A program made the position numbers and the translations under genes. Source: Hormoscilla sp. (GTDB lineage: Bacteria; Cyanobacteriota; Cyanobacteriia; Cyanobacteriales; Desertifilaceae). From it: a DNA stretch of 43,774 nucleotides. How positions within the stretch are numbered: the stretch's first letter is position 1; the number at the start of each line of letters is the position of its first letter. Below are positions 2,677 to 11,846 of this stretch, in pieces. The notes beneath the pieces were generated by a model. That model saw only the letters and a list, made by a program, of their open reading frames with translations. It did no database searches and was not told the DNA's origin. The stretch covers positions 1-43,774 of the forward strand of contig JBFRWI010000183.1 in assembly GCA_051439505.1 (NCBI GenBank). The letters run 5' to 3'.

Positions 2677-4350
<1,674 letters not shown>

Positions 4351-4359
4351 AATCAGATA

Positions 4360-4482
4360 CCGCGCAAGTTAGAGAAGCTTTTGGTTTAATTGTTGCCTGC
4401 TATAGGTCTCAGGCTTGCAGCGTAACTACCGATTACGCACCGTGGTTTGGTTGGTATGTAGGCTTCTCTTGTTAGGGCGCGG
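4360..4482 (-). ncRNA. scaffold RNA cassette A (non-tRNA insert with two hairpins)
   Basis: 5' CCGCGCCCUAAC-AAGAGAAGC-CUACAUAC ... AGCUUCUC-UAACUUGCGCGG 3'. Insert hairpins GCGUAA/UUACGC and GCCUG/CAGGC. Confidence 0.7.
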
Positions 4483-4620
4483 CGACAACTGCTAAACAAT
4501 TCAAAATTCAAAACTTCGCACTTCACCCGCCGGGGGTTCAAACCCCCGGCTAATAGCTAAAGTCGGTTAAAACCGACTAAGAAGAGCCGTAGGTTGGGTT
4601 GACGTTAGGAAACCCAACGA

Positions 4621-4852
4621 TGGCAATGCCAACAAATAAGAAGATTTTATCACTCTACAAGTTCCCCGTTCCCACCCTCACCAAAATCCTAGACCAGCAC
4701 GCGGTTGTAACTTTAACAATGCCCTGTACGCCTGTGACATTGCTGGGCTTTATTTGTAACTTAATCATGGCCCCTCATGGTCAGATTATAAGTCTGATTT
4801 TCCAACTTACCCTGTTGGCGGGTTGTGCTCGCTTCTATTCCTTTGGCTACCA
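4621..4852 (-). ncRNA. candidate multi-branched structured RNA downstream of the DIP1984-family gene
   Basis: Closing stems UGGUA-GCCAA/UUGGC-AU-UGCCA and AAUAGAAG/CUUCUUAUU. Internal hairpins CCAAC/GUUGG, UCAGA/UCUGA, GCAAUGUC/GGCAUUGU. AAGUUACAA occurs twice. Confidence 0.45.
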
Positions 4853-4858
4853 ACTTGC

Positions 4859-5317
4859 TCAATCAATCAGTTCTGTCGTCCAATTTGCTGCTTGAATTTT
4901 TGTATCTAACTCCCGATAGTCTCTAGACATTATATCCATTTGCCCTTGCAGTTCGGCAACGTTGACCGTGCTGAAGGTTTTGATTTCCGATCGCCCGTAC
5001 CGATTTTGGTTCACAGCAGCGGCATTTACTAGACTATCATATACGCTGCGTTTTAGCAAGATAGCATCCCTCTGGGCTAAAGCATCGGACATAGTCATCC
5101 CGTCTTCCAGATTTGTCCGGGAATTGGTAGAATTGATTTTCTTAATCAATTCTACCAGTTCATTTACCGTTGCGTCCAACTCGGCAATCAAAGCTTGGGG
5201 ATCTTCTGGGGGTGCTTCTCCTTCCTGGACTTGGGCACTTCTGGTTAGTCTTGCTCGCAACTGTTGGACTTTCTTCTGACAATCTGCTCTCAGAATCAAC
5301 GCTTCTGCTAATTTCAT
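4859..5317 (-). CDS. DIP1984-family coiled-coil protein
   Basis: Characteristic MKLAEALILRAD...VQEGEAPPEDP...RELDTKIQAANWTTEL. GGAGGTG RBS. Confidence 0.85.
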   Translation of the reverse strand: MKLAEALILRADCQKKVQQLRARLTRSAQVQEGEAPPEDPQALIAELDATVNELVELIKKINSTNSRTNLEDGMTMSDALAQRDAILLKRSVYDSLVNAAAVNQNRYGRSEIKTFSTVNVAELQGQMDIMSRDYRELDTKIQAANWTTELID

Positions 5318-5471
5318 CTGTTATCACCTCCTCATTATATCATTTTTATGGGCGATCGCCCTATCAATTATATCTTTTTTGCAGCCTGTTGCCCCTGTTG
5401 AGAACGCCTCCCACGAGTTGAAAAAGCTTTCGTCAGGGTGCGAGGCGCTATTTGAAACTATAGCATAAGAT

Positions 5472-5604
5472 ATCCGCGCAAGTTAGCAAAGCTATTTTAT
5501 TACCCTTGCGCTCTAGTCCACTGAGCTAATTCCGCAATGCAGAATATAGGATTTGAACCTATGACATCAAGTTGTATGTAAGCTTTACAAGTTAGGGCGC
5601 GGAT
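5472..5604 (-). ncRNA. scaffold RNA cassette B: circularly permuted (YrlA-like) tRNA mimic
   Basis: Order is T arm AUAGG-UUCAAAU-CCUAU, acceptor stem AUUCUGC/GCGGAAU closed by an AUU loop, D arm GCUC-AGUGGACUA-GAGC; CUUG/CAAG joins it to the scaffold. Confidence 0.8.
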
Positions 5605-5717
5605 TAAAAACTCAACTTATATTAATGTAGGGTGGGCACCGCCCACCATCCGCCACTTATAGTAATGTAGGGTGGACGCGGTGCCTGTCATCTCTATTGA
5701 TAGGAGTGAGAGTCGCC

Positions 5718-5834
5718 TCGCGCAAGTCAAGAAAGCTGTTGTTCATACGCGAGATTTGAACCCGCTACAAATCGATGAAAATCGAGTGCTCTACCAAATG
5801 AGCTAGTATGTAAGCTTCCGAGGTTAGGGCGCGA
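5718..5834 (-). ncRNA. scaffold RNA cassette C: normal-order tRNA-like insert
   Basis: CAUAC/GUAUG short acceptor stem, D arm GCUC-AUUUGGUA-GAGC, hairpin UCGAU-UUUC-AUCGA, T arm GCGGG-UUCAAAU-CUCGC, all inside the shared scaffold. Confidence 0.8.
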
Positions 5835-5862
5835 CGCGAACTTCCTACCCAATGCTGTGCCA

Positions 5863-5981
5863 ACGCGCAAGTCAAAAAAGCTGTGGGAAAATACACAGGG
5901 ATCGAACCTGTTACCTTACTAATTATGAGTTAGTTGCTCTACCAATGAGCTAGTATGTAAGCTTTCCAGGTTAGGGCGCGT
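5863..5981 (-). ncRNA. scaffold RNA cassette D: normal-order tRNA-like insert with CAU anticodon
   Basis: D arm GCUC-AUUGGUA-GAGC, anticodon arm ACUAA-CUCAUAA-UUAGU, T arm ACAGG-UUCGAUC-CCUGU. Acceptor stem only 4 bp (AUAC/GUAU), inside the scaffold. Confidence 0.8.
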
Positions 5982-6013
5982 CAGCAGCAGCACGAAGTAA
6001 ATTTTTAATAGGA

Positions 6014-6162
6014 TCCGCGCAAGTCAGAAAAGCTTTTTACAACTTCTAGCGTGTCTACCCTTCCACCATAAAGACCGCAGTCTCCAGTGGGACTCGAACC
6101 CACACTTCTTTTCAGAAACTAGCTTGGATTATGTGTGTATGCTTTTCAGGTCAGGGCGCGGA
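6014..6162 (-). ncRNA. scaffold RNA cassette E: circularly permuted class II (Leu-like) tRNA mimic
   Basis: CUAG, variable arm UUCU-GAAA-AGAA, T arm GUGGG-UUCGAGU-CCCAC, acceptor UGGAGAC/GUCUUUA closed by UGCG, Leu-type D arm GUG-GAAGGGUAGA-CAC, then CUAG. Confidence 0.8.
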
Positions 6163-6175
6163 AAAAAGTCTATTT

Positions 6176-6445
<270 letters not shown>

Positions 6446-6561: not shown

Positions 6562-6590
6562 ATACTACACAATACCACTCGTACTGTCAA
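6562..6590 (-). promoter_or_regulatory. sigma70-type promoter, proximal
   Basis: TTGACA-17 bp-TAGTAT. Confidence 0.8.
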
Positions 6591-6663
6591 GGGTCTGAGA
6601 AAATTTTTTTTCTGAGGCGATCGCCCTATTGTGGTTCTTCCTCTCCTAATATGCCCTATCTAT

Positions 6664-6693
6664 ATACTACATACATATTACATCTACTGTCAA
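6664..6693 (-). promoter_or_regulatory. sigma70-type promoter, distal, overlapped by TACTACA-N4-TATTACA
   Basis: TTGACA-18 bp-TAGTAT. Flanks resemble those of the proximal promoter. Confidence 0.7.
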
Positions 6694-8615: not shown

Positions 8616-8659
8616 AAATAAATCACACCTCCTGTTTTAATGAATGTATTATCAATCAG

Positions 8660-8732
8660 CACCCCCACCAGGATTCAAACCTGGGACGATCGCCTTAGAA
8701 GGGCGCTGCTCTGTTCCCTGAGCTATGGGGGC
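8660..8732 (-). tRNA. trnR: tRNA-Arg(TCT), slightly degenerate
   Basis: Cloverleaf with anticodon loop CUUCUAA. T loop UUUGAAU is non-canonical. Confidence 0.75.
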
Positions 8733-8799
8733 ATAAGCAATTCAAAATTCAAAATTCAGAATTCAAATTTGGGAAAAAAATTGATAAAAAGGGTTTCGG

Positions 8800-9129
8800 C
8801 GTTTTAATCGATCGCCGTCTAGCAATGAGAGCATCTACCCGTTGCAAGGCCGCTCTTGCTTGAGTAGTGCTGCGCGGCGGAAATAATGCACCAGCCTCAT
8901 ATTGGCTCAAAGCCTTGATACACAATCATTTTGAATTTTGAATTCTGAATTTTGAATTCCGCGCAGCGGCAGTAGCATGTTCGTCTCGGGATTTGAATCC
9001 CGTCGGCACCTTGCCAACTTCAACAACAGCAATTAAGGTATTCTCATCTAAATTACCCCGTGCAGAATCAATCCGTTTTTCTAACAGCGTCAACTCTGCC
9101 AATGCATCCGTAACCGTCATGGTTGTCAT
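8800..9129 (-). pseudogene. DIP1984-like coiled-coil gene, interrupted and truncated
   Basis: MTVTDALAELTLLEKRI...DEHAT | QARAALQRVDALIARRRSIK split by an insert at 8868-8970 with AGTAG duplicated at 8863-8867 and 8971-8975. The 3' part is lost at another AATTCAA element. Confidence 0.65.
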
Positions 9130-9167
9130 ATACTTCACCTCCCCTTAAAATTGCTGTATGTTTATTT

Positions 9168-10013
9168 TTATGAGTTACTCGCAAATCCTCTGTGGAATTC
9201 TGAGATAATCTTTTTTTCCTTGGTTGAATCTAAGATCGAGAATAACACGGTCTTAAAGTTTATACATAATCCTCCCCTTGGTAATAATAGATCGGCAAAC
9301 ATTTGGGATACCATTGATGGATCGTTTTTGAAGACCCCGCATCCCCAAGCCCCTAACACTAACGCATCACAACCCCGATCGGCAAACAAACTCAATAATT
9401 TAGAACCCCGATCGTATACAACATCCCTGATTTTAGCAATATCTTCATGGTGGTGTCTCGCGATCGCCCCAGCATTAGGAGCCGGACTGGTGATGAAATC
9501 TACAAGATAAGGTTGTTCGAGTATGGTACCATCATCTTTGCGGAAAATAGGACAATTCGGTGAATAAATCATCCTATGGGAGTATAGCAGAGATTTATGA
9601 GAGCGATGAAAATCATAGTATTGGGGACATTTAACGAGACTCTTGTAAAGTGCGGAACTCCGAGCTAAACTTTCTTCTTGAGCTTGAGCGCCTTTGAGAA
9701 ATCCACCTCCCGGGTTTTTAGCAGAAGCAAAATTTAGCACCCCTATCTTTTGTAAATCTGGCGATCGCGCCAGGCGTTCTGCCCCCATTAAGGTAGTTTC
9801 ATTCCTGACTTCAAATTCGGTATTATCAAATCTAGCAGAATAAGAACTAACCTTTTGCTCGATCTCTAAAAGCCTATCGGGTTCGTAGTATTTCGTCCCA
9901 GCAACACAAGCGGAAACTTCCCGATCGATATCGACTCGTTTACCCTCCGGTGAATGGTAGTAGCCCGCATCGATAATTTTTAGCGTATCTTGGGCGATCG
10001 CCATCCGCTTCAC
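9168..10013 (-). CDS. TIGR02452-family macrodomain / bacterial PARG-like protein
   Basis: VLNFASAKNPGGGFLKGAQAQEESLARSS and LVLGAWGCGVFKN motifs. Confidence 0.9.
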   Translation of the reverse strand: MKRMAIAQDTLKIIDAGYYHSPEGKRVDIDREVSACVAGTKYYEPDRLLEIEQKVSSYSARFDNTEFEVRNETTLMGAERLARSPDLQKIGVLNFASAKNPGGGFLKGAQAQEESLARSSALYKSLVKCPQYYDFHRSHKSLLYSHRMIYSPNCPIFRKDDGTILEQPYLVDFITSPAPNAGAIARHHHEDIAKIRDVVYDRGSKLLSLFADRGCDALVLGAWGCGVFKNDPSMVSQMFADLLLPRGGLCINFKTVLFSILDSTKEKKIISEFHRGFASNS

Positions 10014-10167
10014 GATCTTTCCTCCAATTAAATCTTACGGGTGTAATTAAGCCCGCGCAGGCGGGCTTTGTTTTTGTAGCCGGACCCTTTAGGGTTCGGG
10101 CAGGCTACAGGGGCATTAAGCAATTCAAATTTTTGAATTTTGAATTGATAAATTTTGAATTGCTAAG

Positions 10168-10242
10168 TACCCCTGGCAGGATTTGAACCTGCAAAAACGC
10201 TTAACCTGAGTAAGCGATGTCTGCCAATTGCATCACAGGGGT
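10168..10242 (-). tRNA. trnL: tRNA-Leu(CAG) with short variable region
   Basis: GCUUA-CUCAGGU-UAAGC anticodon arm and Leu-type D arm, but no long variable arm. Confidence 0.8.
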
Positions 10243-10245
10243 ATA

Positions 10246-10319
10246 TCGGGATGGCAGGATTTGAACCTGCGACATCTTGCTCCCAAAGCAAGCGCGCTAC
10301 CAAACTGCGCTACATCCCG
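10246..10319 (-). tRNA. trnP: tRNA-Pro(TGG)
   Basis: Canonical cloverleaf; CUUGC-UUUGGGA-GCAAG. Confidence 0.95.
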
Positions 10320-10356
10320 TTGGTGCTCCTGGTGGAAGTACACCACGCTCTCAAAG

Positions 10357-10447
10357 CGGAGAGGGAGGGATTTGAACCCTCGACGGTTTTTTTTTAAACC
10401 GCTCTTTCTTAGCAGGAAAGCGCCTTCAACCACTCGGCCACCTCTCC
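10357..10447 (-). tRNA. trnS: tRNA-Ser(GCT)
   Basis: CUUUC-CUGCUAA-GAAAG, long variable arm, G73. Confidence 0.93.
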
Positions 10448-10451
10448 AAAA

Positions 10452-10533
10452 TGGGCCAGGTAGGATTCGCACCTACAACGCATCAAGCGGGGGTTTTACA
10501 GACCCTTGCCCACGCTAATAGGCGGGCTGACCC
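10452..10533 (-). tRNA. trnY: atypical or pseudo tRNA-Tyr(GTA)
   Basis: Acceptor GGGUCAG/CUGGCCC, loop CUGUAAA and variable arm present. D arm is aberrant and the T loop is UGCGAAU. Confidence 0.6.
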
Positions 10534-10612
10534 AAAAATTTTGCCCTCAATGAAAGCTAATATCATATGCCAAGCTTCGAGGCTCCGGTGCCGAAGCGTT
10601 GTTATTTGCCAT

Positions 10613-11209
10613 TTACATGTTGTAGGAACGGTCAAACGCCCGTTCAACAAAGTTACGAATCTCATCATAAGACGGGCTTGGTCTCAAATCACGATTGCGA
10701 TCATTAGATTCAACAATCATTTGTCTGATATTTGCCATTTGTTCCGATCTGTCAAATACGTTTTGAAGGATGCCATTGGTAAAGATTAGTTCAATTACAT
10801 TTTTGTATTTCCATGGACTGTGGAATCCCATATGAACATATAATTCTCGAATGAATCCGTCTGCGATCAACAACCCGCCACTATATTCTAGATGGTAATT
10901 CAGACCCTTGTAATGATTATTGAAGTGGAATTCTTCTCTTGCGTCAGTGGGGGTGATTCCTTTTATGACAGGACCTTGCTTGCGTTGGAAACTCTTCTCA
11001 TCTTCTAGGAGATGCACATAAAGAGTGTCAAGAACTAAGTGTGAATTGGAAATGGCAAAAACTGCAATATAACCACGCCAACACGCAGAAGAGGGCCCTG
11101 TTGGTTTCAGTTCAAAAATAGCGGGATCGAAGAGTTCGCCTTCACTGATCCCAGCCAACGAATACTCGATGCCACGATATTGAAATATGTCGTCCATTTG
11201 GGCTGTCAT
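10613..11209 (-). CDS. hypothetical protein embedded in the tRNA array
   Basis: 198-aa ORF with AGGAGG RBS, co-oriented with the tRNAs. Confidence 0.8.
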   Translation of the reverse strand: MTAQMDDIFQYRGIEYSLAGISEGELFDPAIFELKPTGPSSACWRGYIAVFAISNSHLVLDTLYVHLLEDEKSFQRKQGPVIKGITPTDAREEFHFNNHYKGLNYHLEYSGGLLIADGFIRELYVHMGFHSPWKYKNVIELIFTNGILQNVFDRSEQMANIRQMIVESNDRNRDLRPSPSYDEIRNFVERAFDRSYNM

Positions 11210-11267
11210 TTCAGTACCTCCTATCTCCAGGATTTAAGTCTCTTATCACGTTAATAAAATAGTATAA

Positions 11268-11340
11268 CAGCCCCAACGGGAATCGAACCCGTGTCTTCTG
11301 ATCGAAAGTCAGAAATCCTTGACCGCTAGACGATGGGGCC
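11268..11340 (-). tRNA. trnE: tRNA-Glu(TTC)
   Basis: UCUGA-CUUUCGA-UCAGA; T arm ACGGG-UUCGAUU-CCCGU. Confidence 0.9.
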
Positions 11341-11343
11341 ATT

Positions 11344-11418
11344 TGGCGCGGGGATTAGGATTTGAACCTAAAATTCCAGTTTTGGAGACTGGAGTGTTGC
11401 CAATTACACCATCCCCAC
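11344..11418 (-). tRNA. trnW: tRNA-Trp(CCA)
   Basis: CCAGU-CUCCAAA-ACUGG; G73; CCA encoded. Confidence 0.9.
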
Positions 11419-11419
11419 A

Positions 11420-11524
11420 TTAAGCAATTCAAAATTCAAAATTAAAAATTAAAAATTCCGGAAACTATTGATAGCAAGGGTTTCGGCGTTTTGGCCTATG
11501 CAATTTAAATGGGCGACAGCTTAG
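11420..11524. mobile_element. ~105-bp MITE-like element with AATTCAA heptamers
   Basis: TAAGC...GCTTAG termini. Near-copy at 15904-16007 and partial copies near 8735, 10117, 4495 and 175. Confidence 0.65.
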
Positions 11525-11597
11525 TGGCAGCGGCGGGACTCGAACCCGCATCGACCAAGTTATGAGCTTGGTGCTTTGACCATTAAGCTACGCTGCT
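11525..11597 (-). tRNA. tRNA(CAT), Met or Ile2
   Basis: CCAAG-CUCAUAA-CUUGG. A1:C72 mismatch, but lacks the initiator GGG/CCC pairs. Confidence 0.85.
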
Positions 11598-11607
11598 ACA
11601 TCGCCAG

Positions 11608-11679
11608 AGGGGAGAGCGGGAGTCGAACCCGCGATTTTCCGCTTTGCAGGCGGACGCCTTACCACTTGGCTATCTCCCC
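11608..11679 (-). tRNA. trnC: tRNA-Cys(GCA)
   Basis: UCCGC-CUGCAAA-GCGGA; U73. Confidence 0.93.
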
Positions 11680-11756
11680 TGGGAGTCCCGACGAGATTTG
11701 AACTCGCATCTTCACCTTGAGGGGGTGACGGCTTAAGCCAATTTGCCTACGGGACT
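11680..11756 (-). tRNA. trnE: tRNA-Glu(CTC)
   Basis: UCACC-CCCUCAA-GGUGA; CCA encoded; unusual C33 and C73. Confidence 0.8.
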
Positions 11757-11762
11757 TCGGGA

Positions 11763-11837
11763 CGAGGCTGACGGGATTTGAACCCGCGACTTCCTGTTCG
11801 ACAGACAGGCGCTCTAGACCAACTGAGCTACAGCCCC
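11763..11837 (-). tRNA. trnD: tRNA-Asp(GTC)
   Basis: CCUGU-CUGUCGA-ACAGG; G73. Confidence 0.93.
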
Positions 11838-11846
11838 AAAAAAGAC

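Follow-up and report, generated by a model that had tools for sequence, protein, structure and literature searches.

The DNA analysed here, referred to as the window, is a stretch of 43,774 nucleotides (nt) from Hormoscilla sp. (contig JBFRWI010000183.1 of the assembly GCA_051439505.1). Within positions 5472–6162 it contains four cassettes, E, D, C and B, all of which lie on the minus strand and share one common scaffold. Further along the same strand follow a fifth cassette, A, and a gene encoding a 479-amino-acid (aa) protein that resembles Ro60/Rsr. The four units are flanked by two families of direct repeats, a 37-nt sequence present four times, which is the 5′ arm of the scaffold on the RNA strand, and a 26-nt sequence, also present four times, which is the 3′ arm. 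The scaffold has two stems, outer and inner, with a conserved internal loop between them, and in addition the invariant sequence UACAUAC. On the 5′ side each unit reads through the outer-stem strand (..CGCGC), the loop CCCURAC, the inner-stem strand (..RAAGCU) and UACAUAC into the variable insert. After the insert follow the inner-stem strand (AGCUUU..), the loop RACUUG and the outer-stem strand (GCGCG..). The handle formed by the two arms has an outer stem of at most 11 base pairs (bp), an inner stem of about 8–10 bp and an internal loop with the consensus 5′ CCYRAY / 3′ RACUUG.

The pattern of four cassettes is real and far beyond chance. The 19-nt pattern of the 5′ arm has five exact matches in the 6.47-Mb genome, and every one of them lies in this contig; the fifth, at 4462–4480, is part of cassette A. 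Only exact matches are counted, because matches to the scaffold pattern with up to two mismatches are not commoner in the whole genome than those to the reversed control. In 100 cassettes from 21 loci, aligned to one model, the letters CG..CC..A, AGC.TACA.A, GC and ACTT(G) are invariant or nearly invariant across three classes of cassettes.

Cassettes C and D carry a tRNA-like body with the arms in normal order. Cassette D (5861–5982, minus strand; 5858–5987 with the full outer stem) consists of the scaffold and a cloverleaf composed of the acceptor 5′ strand at 5953–5959, the D arm at 5936–5950, the anticodon arm at 5918–5934 with CAU at 5925–5927, the T arm at 5895–5911 and the acceptor 3′ strand at 5888–5894. 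ARAGORN annotates it as tRNA-Met(cat) at 5884–5959, it scores 47.5 bits against the Rfam tRNA model, and its anticodon loop has 7 nt (CUCAUAA). Cassette C (5716–5835, minus strand; 5713–5840 with the full outer stem) has the same organisation with a short "anticodon" loop. ARAGORN reports it as tRNA-??? at 5741–5812 with an odd loop ("tt"), and its Rfam tRNA score is 38.6 bits. The loop has 6 nt in the Rfam alignment and 4 nt on a 5-bp stem in the minimum-energy fold; the orthologue of C in G003 has a loop of 7 nt with UUU. Both cassettes score above the gathering score of the Rfam tRNA family (RF00005, 29 bits) and have its cloverleaf. A covariance model built from 27 normal-order cassettes (R1) gives 117.8 bits for D and 120.6 bits for C. 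Positions 1–7 of both cloverleaves, the 5′ strand of the acceptor stem, are the UACAUAC of the scaffold, and on the DNA level both ends of the cloverleaves continue into conserved, covarying helices. In the alignment of the normal-order cassettes U33 is conserved in at least 90%, and the elbow nucleotides U8, A14, G18 G19 and GTTC..A..C are invariant or nearly so.

The bodies of cassettes B and E are circularly permuted. Cassette B (5472–5603, minus strand; 5469–5608 with the full outer stem) contains a body of the YrlA type, in which the T arm (5546–5562) is followed by a 7-bp acceptor hairpin with a 3-nt loop (5529–5545) and the D arm (5510–5526), and which is attached to the scaffold at the position of the anticodon stem. 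It matches the Rfam family YrlA (RF02553) with 30.5 bits (E 2.6e-4), under the gathering score of 69, and scores 126.8 bits against a covariance model built from 11 permuted cassettes (R2). Cassette E (6013–6162, minus strand; 6010–6167 with the full outer stem) includes a variable-arm hairpin at about 6105–6118 (5 bp, GAAA loop), the T arm at 6087–6103, an acceptor hairpin at 6069–6086 (7 of 7 bp, 4-nt loop) and a 3-bp D arm at 6051–6066. It scores 89 bits against R2 and has orthologues in G003 and G044, the 5′ arm of the G003 copy being damaged. Each half of E scores best against the tRNA-Leu genes of the same genome among its 55 tRNA calls. The order T arm, closed acceptor, D arm is found in B and E and not in C, D or A. 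In run X2, an RNA library of a relative, one contig represents an allele of E without the insert: position 6045 is joined to 6131, the 85-nt tRNA-like body is exchanged for four letters, and the handle is kept.

Support for the two folds was sought in covariation. For the normal-order fold the structure was written by hand and its pairs were counted in the alignment of 27 cassettes. Here 90.4% of 1133 cells are paired, and changes on both sides are seen in 22 of 42 pairs. None of 500 shuffles reaches any of the five measures, a figure that overstates the significance because the aligned cassettes are kin to one another. When the partner strand is slid by 1–3 columns, 29–50% of the cells are paired. 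The slid controls and the unguided prediction described below are better guides than the shuffles. The covarying pairs are distributed over the outer stem (8 of 11), the inner stem (5 of 10), the anticodon stem (5 of 5), the T stem (3 of 5) and the D stem (1 of 4). The acceptor stem shows no covariation because its 5′ strand never varies; in the 27 sequences its four inner pairs are formed in 25–27, 3:70 in 19, 1:72 in 16 and 2:71 in 5. For the permuted fold, RNAalifold, run unguided on 11 homologues, predicts both stems of the handle, the T arm, the 7-bp closed acceptor and the D arm. Compensatory changes occur in 17 of 31 pairs, including 6 of the 7 pairs of the acceptor hairpin, in a set restricted to 11 non-E sequences because MAFFT misaligned the acceptor hairpin of the E type. 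Covariation thus supports both folds, in every helix but the acceptor stem of the normal-order cassettes. The ends of the RNAs pair into a long stem with an internal loop, 11 outer and 10 inner pairs, as is characteristic of Y RNAs. G-U pairs are common in the handle, which fits selection on the minus-strand RNA.

A preliminary description of this DNA, made from the sequence and its open reading frames (ORFs), had placed two opposite tRNA topologies on one scaffold. The ARAGORN and Rfam tRNA calls, the YrlA match and the covariation bear this out. The sequence and the alignment likewise agree with its assignment of the scaffold's (U)ACAUAC to the acceptor 5′ strand of C and D, and the hairpin variable arm and Leu-like halves that it ascribed to E are recovered. 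It had also called the acceptor stem of C and D truncated. This overstates the matter: the stem is little shortened, pairing at its four inner positions is almost constant, and as many as 6 or 7 of the 7 pairs are possible. That C and D cannot be aminoacylated, as the description also held, goes too far, given that YrlA of M. smegmatis is cleaved by RNase P and acquires CCA (PMC4201824).

Similar tandem cassettes were found in many of 61 related genomes by a DNA search. Twenty loci, picked by cassette sequence, were fetched and analysed together with the window. R1 detects 45 full-length cassettes in this set with 71–134 bits, at least one per locus; its sole other match is a true tRNA of the window (52 bits, partial). 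R2 recognises the handle of all classes and finds 100 cassettes, 32 of which score at least 68 bits with a closed acceptor stem. A comparison of insert types and numbers across loci, proposed in the preliminary description, thus yields 45 normal-order, 32 closed-acceptor and 23 other cassettes in 21 loci. Both tRNA classes are present in 20 of the 21 loci, each of which has 3–7 cassettes; the exception is the contig-end fragment L032 with a single cassette. The family as a whole has therefore conserved the pairing of one scaffold with two opposite topologies, which is not a peculiarity of the window.

Cassette A (4358–4482, minus strand) is located directly upstream of the Ro-like gene and carries a non-tRNA insert of two hairpins on the same scaffold. 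It is kept in six aligned loci with compensatory changes in 11 of 29 pairs, and it matches no Rfam family at E values up to 10. Other insert types occur in the relatives. A third topology, absent from this window, is joined to the same handle inside the D loop, so that the order is the 3′ half of the D arm, a full anticodon arm with a 7-nt loop, the T arm, a closed acceptor hairpin and the 5′ half of the D arm (L031:7196-7342(+), L037:7227-7377(-), L033:1254-1418(-), L030:7526-7652(-) and L042:8665-8795(-)). The split D stem is legible in three of the five aligned sequences and covaries by eye (GAGU/ACUC, GAGC/GCUC, AAGC/GCUU). Mini cassettes of 79–105 nt that consist of the handle only adjoin the Ro-like gene in five loci, none of them in this window. 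Some cassettes of relatives contain extra segments of 25–70 nt within the T loop or the loop of the acceptor hairpin (L037:7855-8039(-), L037:7465-7639(-), L040:7411-7587(-), L039:7119-7334(+) and L046:7486-7699(-)); these may be small inserted repeats.

In four loci, cassettes of about 190 nt (L031:7774-7965(+), L035:7310-7500(-), L044:7805-7995(+) and L037:7646-7843(-)) have as insert a 21–33-nt copy of a stretch of 23S rRNA, which we take to be helix 69 and its 3′ flank. Compared with the 23S gene in the rRNA locus of a relative, the copies are 91–95% identical, at E values of 2e-7 to 6e-5; BLAST of the inserts against the source genome gave nothing useful. The 11-mer common to the inserts occurs there once, outside any rRNA, so the 23S gene of the source genome seems to be unassembled. 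The helix-69-like cassette of L035 matches no Rfam family at E values up to 10, and the large subunit (LSU) rRNA model is silent on a 251-nt slice. In G005 a lone 56-nt stretch (G005:C1:5951111-5951166) that belongs to no rRNA operon matches positions 1093–1148 of the LSU rRNA model with 51.8 bits; the Ro-like locus of that genome is about 57 kb away.

On 74 extracted cassette rows ARAGORN made 29 calls, among which the anticodon CAU occurs nine times, UAG eight times and UAA twice, with two odd loops; GCU, GAA, GAU, AUU, UUU, CUU and ACA are found once each as other class I anticodons of the relatives, and class II Ser-like bodies carry UGA or CGA. The insert bodies stem from different tRNA types, and the allele of E without its body shows that gain and loss of inserts do happen. 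The preliminary description had regarded the inserts as independent captures of different tRNA genes. The part of this view that concerns their origin from different tRNA types stands. However, CAU-type and UAG-type bodies with their own D-arm sequences recur in many genera and form conserved lineages in many genomes, which implies that most inserts are old paralogues more than recent captures.

The gene that follows cassette A (2677–4116, minus strand) encodes the 479-aa protein. The protein gives only weak vWA matches in Pfam and no match in NCBIfam. A family profile comprises 46 members with 28–78% identity to the 479-aa protein. Against the PDB this profile matches human RO60 (E 1.5e-15), Xenopus Ro (E 6e-11), Rsr of D. 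radiodurans (E 4e-7) and two TROVE proteins, one of them from the Thermus phage phiLo (E 2.3e-12, residues 25–393). The AlphaFold model, with a predicted local distance difference test (pLDDT) score of 87, has a helical-repeat ring followed by a vWA domain, as Ro60/Rsr proteins do. The top 12 ranks in a Foldseek search of this model are all Ro60/Rsr/TROVE structures (11 listed), with E values of 6e-12 to 2.5e-9 and template modelling scores of 0.53–0.64. The alignments are near full length (461–539 columns), and bare vWA domains rank only below them. The Pfam family vWA_Ro60 matches 9 of the 46 members, and the columns D302, S304, S306, T364 and D388, invariant in the family, would fit the metal site of a vWA domain. 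The relatives are named "vWA domain-containing" or "hypothetical" in their sources, and all names among the matches listed are cyanobacterial; they include strains of Nostoc, Fischerella, Calothrix and others whose protein is 74–78% identical. Of 8000 candidates that were scored, 3072 are homologues at E ≤ 0.001. By profile and by predicted fold the protein is taken to be a divergent Ro60/Rsr homologue, which upholds the Y-RNA frame of the preliminary description. A protein search of plasmids gave only two records, neither of them the Anabaena megaplasmid. A narrow, single-protein search of viral contigs gave no relative of the protein, and in an equally narrow search the 16-nt scaffold motif matched five viral contigs, none of which holds a cassette according to R2.

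The cassettes and the Ro-like gene occur together. In the window the cassettes lie upstream of the gene on the same strand, at distances from 242 nt (A) to about 2 kb (E). The gene was found by tblastn in 18 of the 20 related loci; for the other two the contigs are short or truncated. A fairer test of this linkage than the fetched loci is a set of 151 genomes sampled over the whole phylum. Here a cassette was defined as a full-length R1 match of at least 90 bits, because R1 also matches ordinary tRNAs at about 50–63 bits in every genome, and the Ro-like gene as a match with E ≤ 1e-30. Cassettes are present in 12 of the 151 genomes, the next best score being 63 bits, and the Ro-like gene in 11. 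All 11 genomes with the gene carry a cassette on the same strand 283–2048 nt upstream of it. In the twelfth genome with cassettes, which has no Ro-like match, the cassette lies 3.7 kb from a contig end. The cassettes are thus same-strand genes within a few kilobases of a Ro60/Rsr-type gene, as known Y RNAs are.

On the other side of the array, a 66-aa ORF (6176–6376, minus strand; family unassigned) ends 13 nt before cassette E. Tblastn recovers it from 19 of the 20 related loci, in each case with the cassettes between it and the Ro-like gene. It has no match in Pfam or NCBIfam, and its atlas neighbours are unnamed cyanobacterial clusters. The ORF is the conserved first gene of the module and may be a third component of the system. 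Upstream of it, two promoter-like sites are located within 6562–6693 (minus strand), each with TTGACA, a spacer of 17–18 nt and TAGTAT. The two segments are near-identical and about 100 nt apart, and each agrees with the consensus in 10 of 12 positions in a consensus scan, which does not speak to function; a polycistronic transcript might start from them. Together with the gap of 13 nt between the ORF and cassette E they suggest a single precursor, as in Deinococcus, where Yrn2, tRNA-Asp and Yrn1 are contained in one polycistronic precursor (PMC4201824). A gene of the DUF6847 / DIP1984 family (4859–5317, minus strand; Pfam E 1.9e-56, NCBIfam E 1.7e-58) lies between B and A. It is present in 4 of the 20 related loci, in L029 only partially (58 of 152 residues, 59% identity), and is an accessory and not a core part.

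Downstream of the Ro-like gene, at 333–2577 on the minus strand, there are co-directional genes for a 220-aa ORF, an HNH (HlpB-like) nuclease (1357–1887), a 130-aa ORF and an RNase T / KapD-like 3′-5′ exonuclease. The 220-aa ORF is found in three of the 20 related loci, the HNH gene and the 130-aa ORF in two each and the exonuclease gene in one, and these genes are therefore not regarded as conserved partners. A microbial PARG gene (9168–10013) and a 198-aa ORF interrupt an array of ten tRNA genes (8659–11838, minus strand; Arg, Leu, Pro, Ser, Glu, Trp, Met, Cys, Glu, Asp). Long tRNA arrays are present in two of the 20 related loci, L037 and L040, with 31 and 17 tRNAs beside the cassettes, respectively. 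A repeat of about 31 nt with a GC-rich hairpin, GGGTGGGCACCGCCCACC, occurs in three copies in the window (5617–5687 and 6410–6440). Two of them widen the gap between B and C, and the same repeat recurs on numerous contigs, both in this genome and in those of its congeners.

We propose to read the region as Y-RNA-like genes in tandem that belong to a divergent, unannotated cyanobacterial system of the Ro60/Rsr kind, which displays tRNA mimics, and we hold this to be somewhat more probable than all other explanations taken together. The reading is based on the combination of a terminal stem with a loop, a tRNA-like module, several RNAs and a Ro-type neighbour on the same strand, which is the pattern described by Chen et al. 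(PMC4201824) and likewise in the structural work on YrlA (10.1101/312249). Several observations weigh against it. Pfam TROVE (PF05731) matches neither the 479-aa protein nor any of the 46 family members, nor anything in the whole genome, which is 93% complete. Known Ro-binding modules are marked by the motif GNCGAAN0-1G (CGAA) (PMC4201824); in the 100 cassettes the loop of the handle reads CCYRAY, for example CCCUAAC, and the motif is absent. At its gathering threshold the Rfam YrlA model finds no member in the window or in nine related loci, where 67 of 67 matches are tRNA. Single-sequence folding is modest, with z-scores of -1.45 for E, -1.34 for D, -1.77 for C, -3.10 for B and -3.80 for A, and the minimum-energy fold contains the whole expected structure, that is the cloverleaf and both scaffold stems, only for C. 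The cassette counts per locus come from a biased sample, because the loci were found with the cassette sequence itself. Contigs of three metatranscriptome libraries, 90–99% alike, cover 5703–6250 at low depth; they come from relatives, possibly through DNA carry-over, and have no RNA ends, and they are weak evidence that relatives transcribe the array. Parts of 4300–6250 are uncovered by such contigs, and very deep bins at 4498–4629 correspond to a widespread repeat; neither was used as evidence. Since both the CGAA motif and the Rfam score fail, we place the cassettes as a variant of the Ro/Y-RNA kind and not as members of YrlA.

In the proposed system, the 66-aa ORF, the cassettes E, D, C, B and A and the Ro-like gene would be transcribed from the minus strand as one precursor, which would be cut into RNAs of about 120–155 nt. 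The 5′ and 3′ ends of each RNA pair into the long handle, and we infer that the handle is bound by the Ro-like ring. In C and D the acceptor end is buried in the handle with the elbow and the anticodon arm pointing outward; in B and E the anticodon end is buried, and the elbow and the sealed acceptor end are exposed. The tRNA-shaped modules would act like the effector-binding modules of known Y RNAs. Through them the ring may be linked to tRNA-recognising proteins, for example exoribonucleases, processing enzymes or repair enzymes, or they may gate access to the ring. The different connections would present different faces of tRNA, and the RNA would stay out of translation.

The same features can be explained in other ways. 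The cassettes might be an array of decoys or sentinels, in which handle-tagged mimics of translation RNAs lure enzymes that damage RNA, for instance anticodon nucleases or toxins that cut rRNA. The baits would be tRNA anticodon arms with a fixed identity, acceptor ends that are sealed and the 23S helix-69 copy; the ring would sense, sequester or clear a bait once it is cut, or would trigger a response. The authentic-looking 7-nt loops with the recurring anticodons CAU, UAG and UAA, the conservation of U33 and the 26–33-nt, 91–95% identical copy of the helix-69 region on the same handle in relatives agree with this idea. Furthermore, some loci including the window adjoin long tRNA arrays, which have been linked to survival of translational stress (PMC8421152). 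However, just 2 of the 20 related loci have such an array beside them, the loop of C is too short to mimic an anticodon loop, and the permuted cassettes show no anticodon loop, so that a decoy array appears unlikely. A different possibility concerns C and D, which could be precursors of working tRNAs whose paired flanks serve as a stalk for processing, comparable to those of rRNA operons. The tRNA would be freed by RNase P and RNase Z, followed by CCA addition and charging. For this speak the scores above the Rfam tRNA threshold, the ARAGORN calls, the standard CAU loop of D, the C-CCA after its 3′ strand and the tRNA array of ten genes 2.7 kb upstream, as well as the report that YrlA of M. 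smegmatis is cut by RNase P and receives CCA (PMC4201824). Nevertheless, UACAUAC is the same whatever the anticodon, even in cassettes without a tRNA body, which does not fit the rules of tRNA identity, and the pair 2:71 is unpaired in 22 of 27 sequences. The 5′ leader passes directly from a conserved helix into the acceptor stem, the flanks covary as stems over 21 loci and are common to sealed bodies that cannot be charged, and the loop of C is defective. We therefore regard this explanation as distinctly improbable.

It is more improbable still, to the point of being hardly credible, that the cassettes are non-functional remains, whether tRNA genes in decay or an inverted-end repeat element that has taken up pieces of tRNA. 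The allele of a relative in which the tRNA body of E is missing, the damaged 5′ arm of E in G003 and the insertions in T loops or acceptor loops of some relatives are what such remains would show. On the other hand, compensatory changes maintain every helix across many genera, the elbow nucleotides hardly vary, the exact scaffold pattern is absent from the genome outside this contig, and the cassettes keep a constant position and strand with respect to the Ro-like gene. The evidence for purifying selection is already strong.

The array of Y-RNA-like genes may also be part of something broader. As a tentative proposal, which we think is probably too far-reaching, the locus could represent a second, unrecognised cyanobacterial ribonucleoprotein of the Ro type, in which one handle bears interchangeable copies of translation RNAs that serve as baits or adaptors in guarding the translation apparatus. 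These copies would be the tRNA shape opened at the acceptor end, the anticodon loop or the D loop and, in addition, the piece of 23S rRNA around helix 69. If this were true, the system would be a modular, evolvable system of RNA display rather than a single Y RNA. The factor that binds the tRNA-like module of bacterial Y RNAs is given as unknown in 10.1101/312249. The same handle with different tRNA ends exposed, in one operon and in many genera, constitutes a natural experiment, and the proteins bound by each topology would reveal which face of the tRNA mimic matters. Systems of the Ro type are under-counted, as both Pfam TROVE and Rfam YrlA miss this one, and in 21 loci about 100 tRNA-like bodies would go unannotated or be entered as odd tRNAs.

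Among the described systems YrlA, known from Salmonella, Mycobacterium, other bacteria and phages, is similar in its Ro60-type neighbour on the same strand and in the end-paired stem with an internal loop. The tRNA mimic of YrlA consists of the T arm, a loop-closed acceptor and the D arm, joined at the position of the anticodon stem (PMC4201824; 10.1101/312249), and the arm order of B and E is identical to it. In general, Y RNAs adjoin Ro60 on the same strand, are present in two or more per species and have tRNA-like effector modules (PMC4201824; 10.1101/312249). The cassettes differ from YrlA in that their handle lacks the CGAA motif, in their scores far under the Rfam threshold and in their number, 3–7 per locus apart from the fragment L032 as opposed to one YrlA. 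Chen et al. in 2014 searched only beside proteins annotated as TROVE (PMC4201824). Their Supplementary Table S1 lists cyanobacterial Ro60 proteins of 533–534 aa with one YrlA each at a distance of 100–500 nt, and their alignment shows the CGAA motif in these cyanobacterial YrlA RNAs (PMC4201824). The Ro-like family described here, with 477–479 aa, lacks some 55 residues by comparison and goes undetected by Pfam TROVE. The system is different from the cyanobacterial TROVE-Ro60/YrlA of Chen et al.

The arm order of C and D has its closest parallel in Yrn1 of D. radiodurans, and the preliminary description, which knew of no normal-order inserts in Y RNAs, overstated their novelty in this respect because Yrn1 is already in print with the other arm order. 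Compared with YrlA, the T and D arms of Yrn1 are arranged the other way round, and an "anticodon arm" with a 5-bp stem and a 6-nt loop separates them (PMC4201824). C and D share the order of D-like, anticodon-like and T arms on a stem of the Ro type, and C also shares the 6-nt loop, in a comparison made by description only. According to its authors the likeness of Yrn1 to tRNA is weak, without a clear D arm and without a variable arm (PMC4201824; 10.1101/312249), whereas the cloverleaves of C and D are complete and exceed the Rfam tRNA threshold. YrlB and Yrn2 resemble the mini cassettes that relatives have beside the Ro-like gene; the window has no such mini cassette, and its cassette A bears two extra hairpins. 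The Thermus phage phiLo has two Y-like RNAs, Yrl1 and Yrl2, upstream of a divergent Ro60 (PDB 9L5Y, 9KOP), and this phage Ro60 is among the best profile and fold matches of the 479-aa protein. However, Yrl1 and Yrl2 were chosen by the CGAA motif, and tRNA mimicry is not described for them in the available parts of the sources.

Rotated tRNA parts are also known from the permuted tRNA genes of Cyanidioschyzon merolae, a comparison made in 10.1101/312249. These are processed to working tRNA, whereas the bodies of B and E are sealed by a loop and placed on a handle. Two-piece transfer-messenger RNA (tmRNA) likewise has rotated tRNA parts and is processed into working tmRNA. Long tRNA arrays are clusters of extra tRNA genes, often accompanied by an HNH endonuclease gene and induced under translational stress, and their tRNAs are free-standing, 23 of 26 being charged in vivo (PMC8421152). 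The window has both a tRNA array and an HNH gene, but the cassettes are embedded in a handle, and the arrays adjoin few of the related loci. The available text of PMC8421152 makes no mention of vWA, Willebrand or TROVE. No description of this RNA family was found in the literature searches. As far as these searches show, three features of the locus are new: full cloverleaves above the tRNA threshold that are fixed on a Y-type handle, the regular occurrence of both arm orders next to each other within an array, and the previously unrecognised family of the Ro-like protein and the handle.

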